Of a stretch of 27,276 nt of DNA, positions 3,374-26,568 are shown one piece after another. The notes beneath the pieces were generated by a model. That model was not told the origin of the DNA and searched no databases. It was given only the letters and a program-made list of their open reading frames with translations. Position 1 is the stretch's first letter. Each line of letters begins with the position of its first letter. The DNA is from Candidatus Diapherotrites archaeon CG08_land_8_20_14_0_20_30_16 (GTDB lineage Archaea; Iainarchaeota; Iainarchaeia; Iainarchaeales; 0-14-0-20-30-16), in NCBI GenBank assembly GCA_002779075.1, contig PEXK01000029.1, positions 1 through 27,276 of the forward strand. The letters are read 5' to 3'. Made by a program: the position numbers and the translations under genes.

Positions 3374-3411
3374 CCCATTAGACAGATAAATTTTGTGTGT
3401 TGCTAGGATGT
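3374..3411 (+). repeat. Family B intergenic repeat, copy a (forward); 5' arm of the long-range helix around rps19
   Basis: CCCATTAGACAGATAAATTTTGTGTGTTGCTAGGATGT begins 4 nt after the rpl2 stop. It is complementary to 3906-3943. Confidence 0.75.
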
Positions 3412-3420
3412 AAGTGAAAT

Positions 3421-3478
3421 TATGGTCCAGTTGCTAAATTTCTTTCAGAAAAATCAAGAAATTTACAACAGTTCCATA
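3421..3478 (+). repeat. Family A hairpin, copy 1 (decoy SD-ATG hairpin upstream of rps19)
   Basis: TATGG(3421-25)/CCATA(3474-78) foot, A29/A70 mismatch, and a 12-bp A/T helix 3430-3442/3458-3469 with one bulged C. Preceded by GTGAAATTATGGT, which resembles the real rps19 RBS GTGATATTTATGGT (3494-3507). Confidence 0.75.
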
Positions 3479-3502
3479 AAATAAAAAACAGATGTGATAT
3501 TT

Positions 3503-3898
3503 ATGGTAAAAGATTTTATGTTTAGAGGTTTGACTTGGGATGAATTGCTTAAAGCAAACCAAAGTACTTTAGAAAAAGCAATGAATGCAAGAGCAAGAAG
3601 ATCTCTCAAAAGATCAAAATTTTTGGATAAAAAAATAAAGAGAGCAATTGTTGATAATCTTCAAGGCAAAGCGCCAGAGAAGCCAGTAAAAACACATAAA
3701 AGAGATATTTTAATTACACCTGATATGGTTGGTTTGAAATTTGCAGTGTATGATGGTAAAGCATTTCAAACAATAGGAATAACAAAAGAAATGGTCGGTT
3801 TCCCTTTAGGAGAATTTGTTGAAACAAGAAAAAGACCAAAGCACAGCAAAGCAGGAATAGGAGCAACTAGATCTTCTAAACATATTACTAAAAAGTAA
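3503..3898 (+). CDS. rps19: 30S ribosomal protein uS19
   Basis: S19-like core (ITPDMVGLKFAVYDGKAFQTIGITKEMVGFPLGEF). Start moved from GTG 3494, which lies inside SD GTGAT, to ATG 3503. Confidence 0.94.
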   Translation: MVKDFMFRGLTWDELLKANQSTLEKAMNARARRSLKRSKFLDKKIKRAIVDNLQGKAPEKPVKTHKRDILITPDMVGLKFAVYDGKAFQTIGITKEMVGFPLGEFVETRKRPKHSKAGIGATRSSKHITKK

Positions 3899-5971: not shown

Positions 5972-6271
5972 ATGACAGAGATATGTTCTATATGTGGATT
6001 ACCAAAAGACATTTGTGTTTGTGAAAAAATAAACACAGAACAACGCAAAATCTATGTTGTTGAAAGACATGTTAAAGGACCAATGTTTGTAACTTTGGTT
6101 TCAGGTATCGAATCTTCAAAAGATATTGAAGTACTATTGAAGGATCTTAAAAAGAAATTAGCTTGCGGAGGCACAATCAAAAAAAACGAGATTGTTTTAC
6201 AAGGAAAGCATAAAAAGAAAGTAATAGATTTCTTTGTGGGGAAAGGTTATGGCAGCTCACAAATCTCTTAA
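5972..6271 (+). CDS. sui1: Translation initiation factor aSUI1/eIF1
   Basis: CSICGLPKDICVCE zinc knuckle plus a SUI1 fold sequence (KKLACGGTIKKNEIVLQGKHKKKV). Usual archaeal position after rpl29. Confidence 0.9.
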   Translation: MTEICSICGLPKDICVCEKINTEQRKIYVVERHVKGPMFVTLVSGIESSKDIEVLLKDLKKKLACGGTIKKNEIVLQGKHKKKVIDFFVGKGYGSSQIS

Positions 6272-6845: not shown

Positions 6846-7244
6846 ATGAGAGCAATGAGTGCTGAATCAGTAAGAGGATTAGTTTTAGGCTCAAGAATGG
6901 AATGCAGTGACAACACTGGTGCAAAAGTGGTTTATATAATTAGCGTATTTGGACAAAAAACAGTAAGAAGACAAATACCAAGTGCAGGTATTGGAGATTT
7001 GATTAATGTAATTGTATTGAAAGGCAAACCAGAAATGATGCGAAAAAAATTTAAAGCAGTTATAATTAGAAGTGTGATAGGTATGCGAAGAGCAAATGGC
7101 ACAAGAGTCAAATTTGATGGAAATGCTTGTGTTATTGTTGATGATGATGGAGTACCAAAATCTACTGAAGTTAAAGGTGTTGTACCAAAAGAAGTAGGAG
7201 AAAGATTTCCTAAAGTATTAGGACGTGCAGCTTACGTAATTTAA
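6846..7244 (+). CDS. rpl14: 50S ribosomal protein uL14
   Basis: SRMECSDNTGAKVVYIISV... is L14-like. ATG 6846 is 4 nt after GGTGA and ATG 6843 only 1 nt after it, so 6843 remains an alternative start. Confidence 0.93.
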   Translation: MRAMSAESVRGLVLGSRMECSDNTGAKVVYIISVFGQKTVRRQIPSAGIGDLINVIVLKGKPEMMRKKFKAVIIRSVIGMRRANGTRVKFDGNACVIVDDDGVPKSTEVKGVVPKEVGERFPKVLGRAAYVI

Positions 7245-7272
7245 AATTACCCAATGAATTTGATGTGATATT

Positions 7273-7327
7273 TATGGTCCAGTTGTAAATTTCCTCAGAA
7301 AAATCAGAAATTTACAACAGTTTCATA
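7273..7327 (+). repeat. Family A hairpin, copy 2 (upstream of rpl24)
   Basis: TATGG(7273-77)/TCATA(7323-27) foot, A81/A19 mismatch, perfect 11-bp helix TTGTAAATTTC(7283-93)/GAAATTTACAA(7307-17), loop CTCAGAAAAATCA. Flanked by a perfect 17-nt direct repeat at 7260-7276 and 7333-7349. Confidence 0.8.
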
Positions 7328-7346
7328 AATAATTGATGTGATATTT

Positions 7347-7703
7347 ATGACTAAGAAAAAAGTTCAAAAAACAGATTTGCATATTTTGCATAAAAGAATT
7401 TCAGGACATTTATCAAAAGAATTAAGAAAAAAATATAAAAAAAGAGCTTTGCCTATTCGCAAAGGGGACACAGTAATGATATTGGTAGGAAAATTTAGAA
7501 AAAAAGCAGGAAAGGTTACAAGCGTAAATACAAAATTAGGAAGCATAAATGTAGAATCTATTCAAATAACAAAGAAAGATGGCAAAACAGCACCAATCAA
7601 TATTGAACCATCAAATGTTATAATTACAGAATTATATGTTGATGATGAAAGACGATATAAACATATTAAAGTGGAAAATAAAGGTGAAAAGAATGGCAAA
7701 TAA
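7347..7703 (+). CDS. rpl24: 50S ribosomal protein uL24
   Basis: KOW motif (IRKGDTVMILVGKFRKKAGKVTSV). ATG 7347 follows GTGATATTT. The GTG 7338 start in the ORF track lies inside the SD. Confidence 0.93.
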   Translation: MTKKKVQKTDLHILHKRISGHLSKELRKKYKKRALPIRKGDTVMILVGKFRKKAGKVTSVNTKLGSINVESIQITKKDGKTAPINIEPSNVIITELYVDDERRYKHIKVENKGEKNGK

Positions 7704-15223: not shown

Positions 15224-15253
15224 CAACACATAAAAAATATACTGTCTAGAGGG
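15224..15253 (-). repeat. Family B intergenic repeat, copy b' (inverted)
   Basis: Its reverse complement reads CCCTCTAGACAGTATATTTTTTATGTGTTG. It begins 9 nt after the DUF106 stop and directly abuts family A copy 3. Confidence 0.65.
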
Positions 15254-15308
15254 ATGTTTATGGCCAGTTATAATTTTCTCAATAAATCAAAAATTATAAC
15301 AGATCCCT
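15250..15308 (+). repeat. Family A hairpin, copy 3 (upstream of rpl34e)
   Basis: Perfect 11-bp helix GTTATAATTTT(15267-77)/AAAATTATAAC(15290-300), A66/A01 mismatch, C65-G02 pair, outer helix AGGGAT(15250-55)/ATCCCT(15303-08). Flanked by GAGGGATGTTTATGG (15249-63) versus the real RBS GAGGTGATTTTTATGG (15320-35). Confidence 0.7.
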
Positions 15309-15331
15309 AAAAATTAAAAGAGGTGATTTTT

Positions 15332-15661
15332 ATGGTAGCACCGGGAAAAAGAAATTTAAAGAAAAAATTTGTAAGAACAGTAAAAAGTACAAAAGAATAC
15401 AGATTTAGAGAAAAACCTAAAGGAGCATATTGTGCATTGTGCAACAAGAAGTTGCAGGGAGTGCCTAGAGGCGATTTAAGGAAATTGTCAAAAACAGAGA
15501 AAAGGCCAAGTGTTTTGTTTGGTGGAATTCTGTGCTCAGATTGCAGGGATTCTTGCTTTGACGATGCAATTATGTTAAAGACAGGACTGATCAAGGATTC
15601 TGATGTGTCTTTTAGCAAGAAACACTACGTAAAAGAAGCAGTAGCTAAGATACAAATATAA
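15332..15661 (+). CDS. rpl34e: 50S ribosomal protein eL34
   Basis: RTVKSTKEYRFREKPKGAYCALCNKKLQGVPR...CSDCR is L34e-like with a zinc ribbon. ATG 15332 follows GGTGATTTTT. Confidence 0.9.
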   Translation: MVAPGKRNLKKKFVRTVKSTKEYRFREKPKGAYCALCNKKLQGVPRGDLRKLSKTEKRPSVLFGGILCSDCRDSCFDDAIMLKTGLIKDSDVSFSKKHYVKEAVAKIQI

Positions 15662-19154: not shown

Positions 19155-19302
19155 TGAGCATGAACCGAGTGTTGTAAAGGCTTTTGACTTGCAACAAAGT
19201 GTATAAGATTCTGTACGAAGCGTACTTAATCATCTACACATTTTGCGGTTGTGTTATCGAGAGTATTATTGAGCAACTTGTTGCGAAGATAGTAGAAAGC
19301 GT

Positions 19303-19320
19303 CAACCGATTTTTCGGTTG
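19303..19320 (+). other. Hairpin 2 nt upstream of the tRNA 5' end
   Basis: CAACCGA(19303-09)/TCGGTTG(19314-20), 7 bp, TTTT loop. Confidence 0.55.
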
Positions 19321-19322
19321 TT

Positions 19323-19457
19323 GCAGGGGTTCCGGAGTGGTCAAACGGGCAGGGCTTAAGACAACCCTTTTCCGCTCACGCGCAAAAGCGTTGATGGAAA
19401 AGAAGTAAGAAACCCTGTAGCTTAGTGCTTTCGAGAGTTCGAGTCTCTCCCCCTGCA
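19323..19457 (+). tRNA. tRNA-Leu (anticodon UAA) with a 51-nt canonical-position intron
   Basis: Acceptor GCAGGGG/CCCCTGC plus discriminator A. Anticodon stem CAGGG(19350-54)/CCCTG(19413-17). Loop CTTAAG|A with TAA at 19357-59. Long variable arm TAGCTTAGTGCTTTC (class II). T arm GAGAG-TTCGAGT-CTCTC. No encoded CCA. Confidence 0.9.
19361..19411 (+). other. tRNA intron (position 37/38) with a bulge-helix-bulge splice motif
   Basis: Central 4-bp helix CTTA(19355-58)/TAAG(19406-09) is flanked by 3-nt bulges AG|A (5' site) and AA|A (3' site). Inner intron helix is CTTTTCC/GGAAAAG. Confidence 0.8.
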
Positions 19458-19490
19458 TCAATATGGCTCACGAAGTGAGAGCTATTGATG
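19456..19490 (+). ncRNA. Twin hairpin H1 (overlaps the last 2 nt of the tRNA)
   Basis: CATCAATA-TGG-CTCAC-GAA-GTGAG-AGC-TATTGATG: 8-bp outer stem, 3x3 internal loop TGG/AGC, 5-bp inner stem, GAA loop. Confidence 0.55.
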
Positions 19491-19512
19491 TATTTGAACG
19501 AAAGTGAGAATG

Positions 19513-19547
19513 CATTCAAATGGCTTTCGAAGAAAGAGCTTTGAATG
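19513..19547 (+). ncRNA. Twin hairpin H2 (paralog of H1)
   Basis: CATTCAAA-TGG-CTTTC-GAA-GAAAG-AGC-TTTGAATG has the same architecture as H1. Both stems differ in sequence but remain complementary. Confidence 0.55.
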
Positions 19548-19554
19548 ACTTTGG

Positions 19555-19577
19555 ATTAAATCCCAGTAGGATTTAAT
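19555..19577 (+). other. Perfect 9-bp hairpin
   Basis: ATTAAATCC(19555-63)/GGATTTAAT(19569-77), loop CAGTA. Confidence 0.5.
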
Positions 19578-19587
19578 GAAATGGCAT

Positions 19588-19612
19588 CTGTTTTCTTTTT
19601 TAAAGAAAACAG
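19588..19612 (+). terminator. Perfect 11-bp hairpin with an internal T-run (possible terminator of the tRNA/ncRNA unit)
   Basis: CTGTTTTCTTT(19588-98)/AAAGAAAACAG(19602-12), TTT loop. The T6 run at 19596-19601 spans the end of the 5' arm and the loop. Confidence 0.4.
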
Positions 19613-19686
19613 GACCCCCACAGATAACACCAATGCTTGCGAGCAAAAGGGGTTTGAAACAAATATTATATTTATGAGGGATAGAA

Positions 19687-20078: not shown

Positions 20079-20546
20079 ATGGTTGTTAAAACAAAGATGC
20101 AAAAAAAGACAAAGAAATTAAAAGAAAATGAAAAAATAGAGAATTATGATGCTAGTGGGTTGGTTTACGGAAGACTTGCCAGCATGTTGGCACAAAAATT
20201 GCTTGCAGGTTATAAAATAAATGTTTACAATGCAGAAAAGGTAGTAATAACAGGAAATCCAAAATGTGTTGTAACTGAATATTCAAAAAGATATGATTAT
20301 AGAGCAAAGGGAAATCCTGAGAAAGGACCCAAATATCCTAAGGTGCCACATTTGATGCTTAAATTAGCAGTAATTAAAATGTTGCCGAAAGGTGCAAGAG
20401 GAAAAGCACTTGCAAAAAATATTAAAGTGTATATTGGAAATGAAAATAAAGTGGATATTAAAAGTATAAGTTTAGCAAAGATGATGCAAGGTTTGAAATT
20501 TATAGAGTTAGGAGAATTGTGTAATAGATTGGGTGCTAAATGGTGA
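20079..20546 (+). CDS. rpl13: 50S ribosomal protein uL13
   Basis: YDASGLVYGRLASMLAQKLLAGYKINVYNAEKVVITGN is an L13 signature. ATG 20079 follows GGTGATATTT. Confidence 0.94.
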   Translation: MVVKTKMQKKTKKLKENEKIENYDASGLVYGRLASMLAQKLLAGYKINVYNAEKVVITGNPKCVVTEYSKRYDYRAKGNPEKGPKYPKVPHLMLKLAVIKMLPKGARGKALAKNIKVYIGNENKVDIKSISLAKMMQGLKFIELGELCNRLGAKW

Positions 20547-20550
20547 TTAT

Positions 20551-20603
20551 TATGGCCCAGTTATTATTTTTTCCTCAAAAAGAAAAATAATAACAGGTTC
20601 ATA
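20551..20603 (+). repeat. Family A hairpin, copy 4 (upstream of rps9)
   Basis: TATGG(20551-55)/TCATA(20599-603) foot, A59/A95 mismatch, 12-bp helix GTTATTATTTTT(20560-71)/AAAAATAATAAC(20583-94). Flanked by a perfect 14-nt direct repeat GTGATTATTATGGC at 20543-56 and 20613-26. Confidence 0.8.
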
Positions 20604-20621
20604 AAAAAGGAAGTGATTATT

Positions 20622-21206
20622 ATGGCTTTTGATAGAGAAAAAAGGTTTGAAAGATTTGGAAGAAGACCAGAAAAAGATTTTGAGCATAAAAGTTTCAATA
20701 AGTCTGAGGAGCAGACAATAGTGCCAAAAGAAAAACCAAAATTAGTAAAAATGCCAAAATCTTTGACTAGACCAGTAACTAGTAAAACAAAAAAGGGGAA
20801 AGTATTACAGGTAACAAGTAAAAGAAAAAGTGCAGTAGCAAGAGCAACTGTCAGATCAGGAAAAGGACGTATCATAATAAATAAAAAGCCGTATACCGCT
20901 ATTTCAAATAGATTTATTCTAGATCTTGTTAGAGAGCCACTTGTGATTGTTGAAAAACACAATAAAGATTTATTGGGTAAAGTGGATATTAATATTTTAG
21001 TAAATGGCGGTGGGGTTATGGGACAAATGCAAGCAGTAAGAAACTGCATTGCAAAAGCATTTGTTCAGTATTTTGATGATTTAGAGTTGACAAGAGAGTT
21101 TTTGGAATACGATAGATCATTTTTGGTTGATGATGTTAGACGTGTTGAATCCAAAAAACCTTTGGGACCAAAAGCAAGAGCTAAGAAACAACACAGTAAG
21201 AGATAA
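20622..21206 (+). CDS. rps9: 30S ribosomal protein uS9 with a roughly 60-aa basic N-terminal extension
   Basis: S9 core (VLQVTSKRKSAVARATVRSGKGRIIINKKP ... KKPLGPKARAKKQHSKR). ATG 20622 follows GTGATTATT. Confidence 0.93.
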   Translation: MAFDREKRFERFGRRPEKDFEHKSFNKSEEQTIVPKEKPKLVKMPKSLTRPVTSKTKKGKVLQVTSKRKSAVARATVRSGKGRIIINKKPYTAISNRFILDLVREPLVIVEKHNKDLLGKVDINILVNGGGVMGQMQAVRNCIAKAFVQYFDDLELTREFLEYDRSFLVDDVRRVESKKPLGPKARAKKQHSKR

Positions 21207-26441: not shown

Positions 26442-26494
26442 TTTCAACTAGCAAATATTTATAAACTTTTTTATGTTATTATATAAATTTTTAA

Positions 26495-26523
26495 TTTGTC
26501 AGTAGGGTTAGACCTTTGACAAA
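26495..26523 (+). other. Inverted repeat in the ileS-downstream spacer
   Basis: TTTGTCA(26495-501)/TGACAAA(26517-23) with an inner AGG/CCT, enclosing GGTTAGACC. Preceded by T-runs at 26468-73 and 26488-92. Confidence 0.35.
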
Positions 26524-26568
26524 ATTCACAGATATACATAAAATAAAATATCTTTTGGAGGGTATTAC

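Follow-up and report, generated by a model that had tools for sequence, protein, structure and literature searches.

In the 27,276-nt stretch of Candidatus Diapherotrites archaeon CG08_land_8_20_14_0_20_30_16 analysed here (contig PEXK01000029.1, positions 1 to 27,276; hereafter the window), four intergenic hairpins stand directly upstream of the ribosomal protein (r-protein) genes rps19, rpl24, rpl34e and rps9. Judged from sequence comparison, these hairpins are probably copies of a mobile or duplicative element, small, non-coding and non-autonomous, that enters genes at their ribosome-binding site (RBS) and ATG(G) start. The unit is multi-copy, is present or absent at orthologous junctions, has spread recently within genomes, forms tandem arrays, covaries in its stem and prefers ATGG starts. 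By kind it resembles the MITEs (transposable elements of the miniature inverted-repeat type) and the repetitive extragenic palindromic (REP) repeats, and it is distinguished by its placement at start codons and by the RBS plus ATG that always lies behind it. Since a working RBS and start codon come after each copy, an insertion at the start of an essential gene would be near-neutral. Its hosts form a narrow clade of DPANN archaea related to Diapherotrites, and we conclude that the hairpins are not an r-protein leader.

All copies follow one plan. The 5′ end of the unit is the gene's original RBS and ATG, here termed the decoy ATG, usually with 0-3 more bases. Next comes a core of 38-44 nt with the arrangement 5′-CAG-stem-loop-stem-CAG-3′, in which the facing CAGs pair with one another, C-G and G-C, around an A·A mismatch. 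On the 3′ side of the core, an unpaired spacer of 2-3 nt leads to a foot, YCAYAAA, that is complementary to the TTTATGG of the start region; the decoy ATG is usually paired with this foot, as the earlier note on this DNA had described for the window. A short A-rich tail follows, and then the second strong RBS and ATG that serve the gene. The internal loop is asymmetric, 2x2 or 2x3.

Copies and empty sites in related genomes

The window is an AT-rich (30.7% G+C) archaeal r-protein super-operon with the order L3-L4-L23-L2 | S19 ... L14 | L24 ... SecY-EMC3-like | L34e ... L13 | S9-enolase-S2-IleRS, the hairpins lying at the bars. Its sequence is carried on a 52.7-kb metagenomic contig (ENA ERZ27293347 k141_504300), and JGI and Logan assemblies hold strains that are 99.9% identical to it. 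For S3 and IleRS, the closest named relatives are Candidatus Diapherotrites/Iainarchaeum at 44-49% identity, besides a handful of metagenome-assembled genomes at 61-88%. With S3 and IleRS homologues as anchors, the orthologous operon was retrieved from seven related genomes; all of the sampled sequence is rich in r-protein operons and lies on one strand. The genome of the window (locus L108) is called G1, and its element-bearing relatives are G2 (L112), G3 (L113), G4 (L232 and L254, together one 37.9-kb contig) and G5 (L235). Two covariance models were used, R1 built from the four window copies and R2, an improved model.

The search for further copies that the earlier note had advised was productive. 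A fifth, more diverged copy lies on the same contig 6.3 kb past the window, 5′ of rpl7ae (L108 19902-19964), and is flanked by a 22-nt perfect repeat, AAGGAGGAATGATTATGCCACA, consisting of RBS, ATG and five coding bases. Altogether about 30 copies were found in the five Diapherotrites-like DPANN genomes G1-G5, drawn from independent assemblies (ENA, JGI, NCBI and Logan), with model E-values of 1e-10 to 1e-18 across genomes and a large gap to background. G2 has four copies (S19, L24, L15 and L34e), G3 three (S19, S4e and a variant at L34e with a structured loop insertion of ~95 nt) and G5 one (S4e). G4 holds at least 17 copies at 11 start sites: tandem pairs at S19, L34e, L18 and S2, and single copies at L29, L24, S8 (degenerate), S4, L7Ae, S28e and Spt4. 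Three further relatives, L111, L233 and L234, gave no R2 match, and their orthologous junctions are the empty, single-RBS sites for which a comparison of relatives had been suggested, with gaps of 0-31 nt.

Occupied junctions vary between genomes. In a tree of ten concatenated proteins, G2 with its four copies is the sister of L234 with none, at 13% distance, and G3 with three copies is the sister of G5 with one. The cores of G2 are 100% identical at L24, L15 and L34e, as are those on the G4 contig at L24, L18 and Spt4, and for 20 of 27 copies the closest core was found in the same genome, not at the same site. The S4e copies of the sisters G3 and G5 are quite different hairpins. An ATGG start is present in 20 of 25 element-bearing genes compared with 13 of 36 window genes, which suggests sequence-directed targeting of (T)TTATGG.

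All copies found are at a translation start and in the orientation of the downstream gene, with one flipped core in G4. That core belongs to the first unit of the tandem at enolase|rps2 (L254 9164-9226) and reads CTG...CTG, with T·T for A·A; foot, tail and RBS of the unit keep their normal orientation, and the opposite strand scores 42.7 bits versus 31.6.

The genes preceded are S19, L24, L34e, S9, L7Ae, S4e, L15, L29, L18, S8, S4, S2, S28e, Spt4 and a DnaG-like gene. The tie to r-protein genes that the four window sites had implied is not supported, with copies also before Spt4, the DnaG-like gene and a first gene. An enrichment at r-protein genes was considered and set aside: in G4, ~10 of ~42 r-protein starts are occupied versus 1 of ~20 others, a difference that is not significant in a sample biased towards r-protein operons. 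A first metagenome pattern scan returned no match; a second, looser one had the real loci L171, L189 and L120 among the 80 matches listed. Of these, L171 and L189 hold one copy each, and the scan added a copy before an archaeal DnaG-like gene and one before a first gene. Scanning the GTDB species genomes with CCAGTTR...YAACAGNTYCMTAAA, a pattern too strict for the relatives' variants TCAGTT and ACAGTT, gave 103 stretches, about the chance expectation, and none of the 80 fetched scored with the model. Among viral contigs there were 18 pattern matches and no real copy.

A covarying stem with a retained mismatch

The hairpins first located at 3421-3478, 7273-7327, 15250-15308 and 20551-20603 are all present and fold as described. 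At rpl2|rps19, rpl14|rpl24, EMC3-like|rpl34e and rpl13|rps9 (copies 1-4), the folding energies are -16.4, -18.1, -13.2 and -15.9 kcal/mol, with z-scores of -5.1, -5.4, -1.9 and -4.1 against dinucleotide shuffles, and for three of the four copies none of 200 shuffles folds as well. The minimum-energy basal helix of copy 3 is GGGAU/AUCCC, not UAUGG/CCCUA. Run on the window, R1 returned the four copies alone, at 69-79 bits on the + strand (E ~1e-16 to 1e-18); their reverse complements reach 27-39 bits and the next-best window match 18 bits.

Covariation was assessed on 22 distinct copy sequences and bears out the compensatory changes proposed for the long helix. In 10 of 19 pairs changes occur on both sides, and the double-sided changes amount to 34 cells versus 14.4 +/- 4.2 in column shuffles, none of 500 shuffles reaching 34. 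The covariation score is 0.219; shuffles give 0.129, and slid controls no more than 0.118. At pair 15-48, 11 sequences have AU and 11 GC, and at pair 14-49, 17 have UA and 5 CG, with zero unpaired cells in either; the lower stem occurs as GTTG/CAAC, GTTA/TAAC, GTCA/TGAC, ATCA/TGAT and ATCG/CGAC. The basal helix is the least conserved part of the element. The loop of the type CTCA(R)AAA, described as shared by the window copies, is not kept in the relatives, and the conserved A·A mismatch is retained in 21 of the 22 sequences. As intrastrand 'palindrome correction' alone would remove such a mismatch, its retention argues for a constraint on the folded single strand; together, mismatch and covariation indicate what is most probably a constrained single-stranded structure.

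Across copies, the gene strand scores 53-79 bits and the opposite strand 38 bits or less, a difference of about two-fold. The reverse-complement strand folds slightly better, with a mean of -16.4 versus -13.7 kcal/mol and 30 versus 11 G·U pairs. Wobble pairs do not point to one active strand: the alignment counts, G·T 14 versus A·C 23, are confounded by bulges, and the advantage of the reverse complement may merely reflect the A-richness of the sense strand.

The G3 variant at EMC3-like|rpl34e (L113 ~20570-20715) has the arms CAATCG.../...CGACAG and the foot TCATAAAA, and its loop insertion of ~95 nt is branched and G+C-richer. The variant folds at -48.6 kcal/mol (z -5.0) and has no Rfam match; the insertion could be nested or represent a longer parent form.

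The four window copies

All features of the four copies are on the + strand. A repeat search recovered the inverted arms at every site, and also recovered exactly the two perfect flanking repeats of the earlier note, 17/17 nt at copy 2 (7260-7276/7333-7349) and 14/14 nt at copy 4 (20543-20556/20613-20626). Those of copies 1 and 3 had been called imperfect, as they are: the flanking repeat is gapped at copy 1, with GGATGTAAGTGAAATTATGGT versus AGATGTGATATTTATGGT, and 11 nt long with 91% identity at copy 3 (15253-63/15325-35).

At copy 1, the vestigial upstream RBS and decoy ATG (3422-3424) occupy 3406-3426, a diverged, gapped repeat of 3491-3507. The hairpin element spans 3419-3483 (69.5 bits with R1, 63.9 with R2), its core CAG...CAG is at 3428-3471 with the A·A mismatch and a C bulge, and the 3′ foot CCAT (3474-3477) is followed by the A-rich tail. 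Sequence and S19 gene call place the functional RBS GATGTGAT and the rps19 start codon (3503-3505) in 3491-3507. Copy 2 begins with the upstream RBS and decoy ATG (7274-7276) at 7260-7276. Its element lies at 7271-7331 (78.9 bits, R1), with the core at 7280-7320, a 12-bp stem GTTGTAAATTTC/GAAATTTACAAC and the foot TCAT at 7323-7326; the exact repeat at 7333-7349, which also agrees with the gene call, provides the functional RBS and the rpl24 start codon (7347-7349).

Copy 3 starts with the RBS-like sequence AGAGGGATGTTTATGG and the decoy ATG 15260-15262 (15248-15263), and its element spans 15257-15313 (70 bits with R1, 68 with R2), with the core at 15265-15302 and the foot CCCT. The functional RBS AGAGGTGATTTTT and the rpl34e start codon (15332-15334), placed by sequence and gene call, are at 15319-15335. 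In the 99.9%-identical strains L002 and L004, two of eight differences from the window in 10 kb hit foot and tail of this copy: relative to window 15303-15312, both strains (L002 2128-2138) have CCAT for CCCT plus a 1-nt deletion, and pairing with the decoy ATGG is restored by the change. At copy 4, the upstream RBS and decoy ATG (20552-20554) lie at 20543-20556, a repeat that includes the rpl13 stop codon TGA (20544-20546). The element extends over 20549-20607 (78.7 bits, R1), with the core at 20558-20596 and the foot TCAT at 20599-20602, and 20613-20626 holds the functional RBS and the rps9 start codon (20622-20624), as given by sequence, gene call and repeat search.

Local and donor-type flanks

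The genome's RBS consensus GTGATATTTATG also recurs at element-free genes (4622, 8409, 11039, 11551, 20070 and 21428), so similarity between the two flanks of a copy is partly plain consensus. Yet the flanking repeats exceed this effect: in seven copies, the 17 nt before the upstream and the downstream ATG agree, ungapped, at 13-16 positions, whereas 496 pairs of ordinary window RBS regions have a mean of 6.3 and a maximum of 13, with 0.8% at 13 or more.

The proposal that the RBS is regenerated by a long target duplication holds for some copies and fails for others. The local RBS is truly duplicated at G1 L7Ae (22 nt), G1 L24 (17 nt), G2 L15 (15-22 nt) and G4 L7Ae (17 nt); in other copies, among them G2 L24 and S19, G3 S4e and G4 S19b/L29, the downstream RBS is non-local and common to further copies of the element. 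Most informative is the comparison of G2 with its empty sister L234. At L30|L15 in G2 the native RBS-start AAATGATGTGATATTTATGGTT stands on both sides of the hairpin, and at L34e both flanks match the native RBS of L234; these flanks resemble duplications of the target, 15-22 nt long. The copy at L14|L24 has the native AGGGATATTTATG as its upstream flank, and its downstream flank, AAAAGGTGAATATTTATGGTTAC, is that of the L34e copy. The S19 and L24 copies have the native RBS upstream and the L34e-type RBS AAAAGGTGAATATTT downstream, and the L24 copy has only ATATTTATGGTT in common with the target, so that at L24 and S19 the RBS appears to have moved together with the element. Neither a simple target-site duplication of fixed length nor an element that always carries its RBS is compatible with all of these copies.

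Other genomes give a similarly mixed picture. At G3 S4e the two flanks differ at 7 of 13 pre-ATG positions, and the upstream flank must be native because the L24 stop codon lies in it. In G4, a 31-nt tail plus RBS is common to copies with different hairpins, identical hairpins have different tails, and the units of a tandem have foot, tail and RBS in common but not the hairpin. What stands between decoy ATG and CAG is usually the second codon of the gene itself (CCA at L7Ae, CA at L18, AGA at S8; also GCA and GTT), and in the Met-Thr genes G1 L24 and G4 L29 it is the donor's GT(C). This mixture of native and donor bases suggests junctions at variable points within the similarity between donor flank and target. 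The idea that the foot is an inverted duplication of the target, which came from UAUGC/GCAUA at G1 L7Ae, was dropped, since the feet at G3 S4e, G3 S19 and G4 L7Ae/L18 retain the consensus or do not match the local bases.

At rpl14|rpl24 of G4 (L232 12030-12075), the native leader contains a tandem duplication, ATTTAATACAAGGTGAA twice, directly 5′ of the element, which suggests slippage or recombination activity near element sites.

A model for spread between start codons

On the basis of the junctions, we propose that a resident unit would be copied into another start site with the common RBS-spacer-ATGG as homology or guide, and that base pairing between foot and target possibly helps to guide the copying. 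Template switching is one conceivable route; another is that an excised unit recombines at RBS-spacer-ATGG microhomology. The position of the junction would decide whether the new copy ends up with a duplicated local RBS or with the donor's. In either case, the old RBS-ATG would stay behind as a decoy whose ATG usually pairs with the foot. The two flanking repeats may then recombine unequally, with precise loss or tandem gain of a copy as the outcome, and gene conversion among copies would add mosaicism. Some factor presumably recognises the single-stranded hairpin, as DNA or RNA, to judge from the conserved asymmetric features. We infer homology-assisted copying over a fixed-length target duplication because some downstream RBSs are local and others donor-type. 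Tandem copies agree with a unit that regenerates a target. A dedicated enzyme with long staggered cuts is an alternative that would need later conversion for the donor-type flanks. Old insertions with concerted hairpin evolution coexist with the recent spread.

The earlier note had offered three hypotheses, of which the first, a mobile or duplicative element at RBS-ATG sites, agrees with the empty sites, the differing junctions, the identical copies and the tandems; only its uniform target duplication has to be given up.

Several observations weigh against a mobile element. There is no transposase, recombinase or other mobilising gene in the ~150 kb examined. The flanking repeats measure ~10-22 nt, up to ~36 nt in tandem pairs, and are sometimes not local duplicates; with such variation, no single classical transposition chemistry fits every copy. 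Several genomes have a copy at L7Ae (G1 and G4), S19 and L34e, so that ancient insertion followed by concerted evolution and loss, and not repeated insertion, could account for part of the pattern; the L7Ae flanks of G1 and G4 are reciprocal best matches (0.85). Long retention with covariation and a conserved mismatch could equally mean a host function.

In a more specific form of the proposal, which we regard as doubtful, the foot YCAYAAA is a built-in guide whose pairing with the target's RBS-spacer/ATGG would place a single-stranded DNA or RNA hairpin right behind the start codon. The element may then carry its own RBS and ATG as a repair kit and belong to a new start-codon-homing class of archaeal mobile elements, mobilised by an enzyme that recognises CAG/A·A/CAG. 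As a variant, it may be a host-co-opted portable translational insulator that uncouples the cistrons of the super-operon. If the foot does base-pair to the start region, this would be a new principle of target selection.

Alternative explanations

A host module that regulates translation in cis accounts for some of the same data, and we consider it an unlikely primary explanation. In such a module, pairing of the foot with the decoy would keep the true start open, and pairing with the identical true start would sequester it; the duplicated RBS would be a switch of the anti-sequestor or decoy type, or a common regulator would bind to the hairpin, and cistron translation inside long operons would be tuned or insulated, with spread being secondary. 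The covariation, the A·A mismatch and the internal loop are indeed kept across genomes ~25-33% divergent in protein, every copy is co-oriented with and directly 5′ of a start codon, and two divergent genomes both have a copy at L7Ae. Partition-function folding makes the decoy ATG less accessible on average than the true one (mean probability of being unpaired 0.25, compared with 0.42; Wilcoxon p = 0.036), although the difference is weak and the copies are not independent. The true ATG is more sequestered than the decoy in ~6 of 27 copies, which makes competition for the foot physically plausible, and at copy 3 the repeat search found complementarity between foot and true start. A decoy or anti-sequestor role at the RNA level is therefore possible according to these predicted folds. 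However, three relatives do without the element, one of them the sister of a four-copy genome, and their tight single-RBS junctions are presumably functional. The occupied junctions differ from genome to genome, tandem and degenerate copies and one inverted core occur, cores group by genome and not by gene, the basal helix is the least conserved part, and there is no frame-specific signal of an upstream open reading frame (ORF). In agreement, a small protein encoded from the decoy ATG was rejected: the first stop is at a median relative position of 0.71 in frame 0 and 0.77 in frame 2, and the frame of the 3′ arm varies.

Still less probable is a signal for RNA processing or stability, that is, an endonuclease site or 5′-end protection by which the polycistronic transcript is split into stable segments. 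A stable, conserved hairpin on the transcribed strand of operons, with an A-rich, unstructured tail and then a strong RBS behind it, would suit this function. The presence/absence polymorphism speaks against it as it does against a regulatory module; a bulge-helix-bulge geometry is unsupported because the would-be central-helix positions vary freely, and since the reverse complement folds at least as well, nothing points specifically to the mRNA strand. The second and third hypotheses of the earlier note, regulation in cis and processing, fit poorly as primary explanations with the absence in sister genomes and the variable, tandem occupancy; either may apply as a secondary role.

That unrelated AT-rich palindromes stand by chance beside consensus RBSs, as the 31% G+C of the genome and the recurrence of GTGATATTTATG at element-free genes might suggest, is hardly conceivable given the model E-values with their wide gap to background, the shuffled folds, a flank identity above the RBS background, and a CAG/CAG core, foot and position that hold in about 30 copies from independent assemblies.

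Significance and neighbouring features

No gene arrays of archaea are more conserved and compact than the r-protein operons, and few genomes are as reduced or as poor in mobile elements as those of DPANN. A repeat at start codons with up to 17 copies in 38 kb offers a route for selfish DNA into essential, coupled operons at near-zero cost, the cost being low because a working RBS and ATG are always left behind. The element junctions are natural experiments on archaeal translational coupling, and the compact, conserved CAG/A·A/CAG hairpin can serve as bait for a binding or mobilising protein.

Decoy starts also mislead gene calling, which yields extended or spurious ORFs. Gene callers start at the decoy ATG at L113 8840-8950 and at L254 13492-13965 and 18939-19046; the resulting calls are spurious ORFs of 35-36 amino acids and an N-terminally extended 'L7Ae' of 157 amino acids versus 121 elsewhere.

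Three further features of the window were noted. An intron-containing tRNA-Leu(UAA)-like gene at 19323-19457 (+) consists of GCAGGGGTTCCGGAGTGGTCAAACGGGCAGGGCTTAAGAC, an insert of ~50 nt and CCCTGTAGC...GTTCGAGTCTCTCCCCCTGCA. It was missed by ARAGORN and by the Rfam gathering scan, its sole signal being a weak tRNA-clan match (tmRNA model, 21 bits), and an intron-less homologue is found at L254 ~6071-6155. Because it overlaps this gene, the 74-aa ORF at 19184-19408 is spurious. The long spacer after the tRNA (19460-19660) contains several short hairpins, for example ATCAATATGGCTCACGAAGTGAGAGCTATTGATG and TTTGGATTAAATCCCAGTAGGATTTAATGAAATGG. An imperfect palindrome 3′ of IleRS, TTATGTAAATTTTTAATTTGTCA...TGACAAAATTCACAGATATACATAA at 26468-26545 (L108 12886-12963), gives weak model matches on both strands and is not a member of the start-codon hairpin family.

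Comparison with known systems

The earlier note had recognised no described r-protein leader or archaeal repeat family in the hairpins, and our searches agree. Rfam has no match in the whole window at the gathering threshold; at E<5, window 7240-7360 and L113 20520-20740 returned only noise (miRNA, CRISPR-DR and rli61, at 12-18 bits versus thresholds of 47-160), and full-text literature searches found no description of such an element. Archaeal r-protein leader candidates exist for S15, eL15 and L4, and none of the leaders listed belongs to the element-bearing genes or to this clade (PMC7247131). Like such leaders, the element is a structured RNA motif with covariation directly 5′ of r-protein cistrons; unlike them, it precedes more than 12 different genes, including Spt4 and the DnaG-like gene, occurs in tandem and is without Rfam match. 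An autoregulatory r-protein leader was rejected because the motif is not operon-specific and is missing at all junctions of L111, L233 and L234.

Two RNA motifs were tried on the alignment by hand. The archaeal splicing-endonuclease motif, a bulge-helix-bulge (two 3-nt bulges on opposite strands with a 4-bp helix between them), can be drawn in register for copies 1 and 2 only (AGUU/AGUU); the partner positions after ACAG vary (UU, AU, GU, UC, AUA, GUA), and complementarity is lost in the other copies. A kink-turn of the L7Ae-binding type, in which a 3-nt bulge precedes tandem sheared G·A/A·G pairs, does not apply either, as no copy has facing GA dinucleotides by the internal loop, the core being CAG/CAG.

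Integron attC sites have RYYYAAC (R″) on the 5′ flank of the hairpin, GTTRRRY (R′) on its 3′ flank, and extrahelical bases. The element resembles them as an imperfect hairpin whose folded form and unpaired bases outweigh sequence, with GTT/AAC stem triplets and modular insertion next to gene starts. It differs in having no cassette array or integrase context, and an attC identity was rejected: the triplet order is reversed (GTT in the 5′ arm, AAC in the 3′ arm), the RRRY/RYYY positions misfit, and there is no extrahelical G or T.

IS200/IS605 insertion sequences (ISs) have subterminal hairpins and move by single-strand HUH transposition; short sequences beside the foot of the hairpin pair with the site of targeting or cleavage, excision is seamless and no target duplication is made. 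This pairing is reminiscent of the CCATAAA foot of the element with TTTATGG. In common with these ISs, and with the REP sequences and bacterial interspersed mosaic elements (BIMEs) that go with REP-associated tyrosine transposases (RAYTs), the element is a lone imperfect hairpin that shows strand asymmetry and conserved mismatches, a combination suggestive of recognition as folded single-stranded DNA: its irregularities are strand-specific, with A·A in 21 of 22 sequences, an asymmetric loop and a ~2x strand score. It lacks the 5′ GTAG-type tetranucleotide of REP sequences, and its copies lie at gene starts rather than downstream of genes. In contrast to IS200/IS605, it has one hairpin per unit, not a left-end/right-end pair, and it has direct repeats on its flanks. 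The ~150 kb of sequence examined showed no TnpA or RAYT gene.

Prokaryotic MITEs, such as Correia/NEMIS of Neisseria and the SM MITEs of Sulfolobus, are a further comparable class. They too are short, non-coding and multi-copy, with inverted-repeat arms that fold into a hairpin and with flanking direct repeats, and they exhibit presence/absence polymorphism, bursts of identical copies and co-transcription with neighbours. The element has the dispersed non-coding copies and insertion polymorphism of this class (about 30 copies in five genomes, none in three relatives, and four versus none in sisters). Unlike MITEs, it lies in all copies found at a translation start, in one orientation to the downstream gene; its flanks are long, variable, made of RBS-ATG and sometimes donor-derived, compared with a target duplication of fixed length; and its arms are inverted repeats with a conserved A·A asymmetry and so do not seem to be simple terminal inverted repeats. 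A parent IS was not seen in the ~150 kb examined, and we know of no cognate transposase for the hairpin element.

Rickettsia palindromic elements, finally, keep the reading frame when they insert, and their translation becomes part of the protein. Both they and the element are selfish palindromic repeats tolerated in essential genes of reduced genomes, and in both the insertion preserves function; in the element described here, it does so by supplying another RBS and start codon 3′ of itself.

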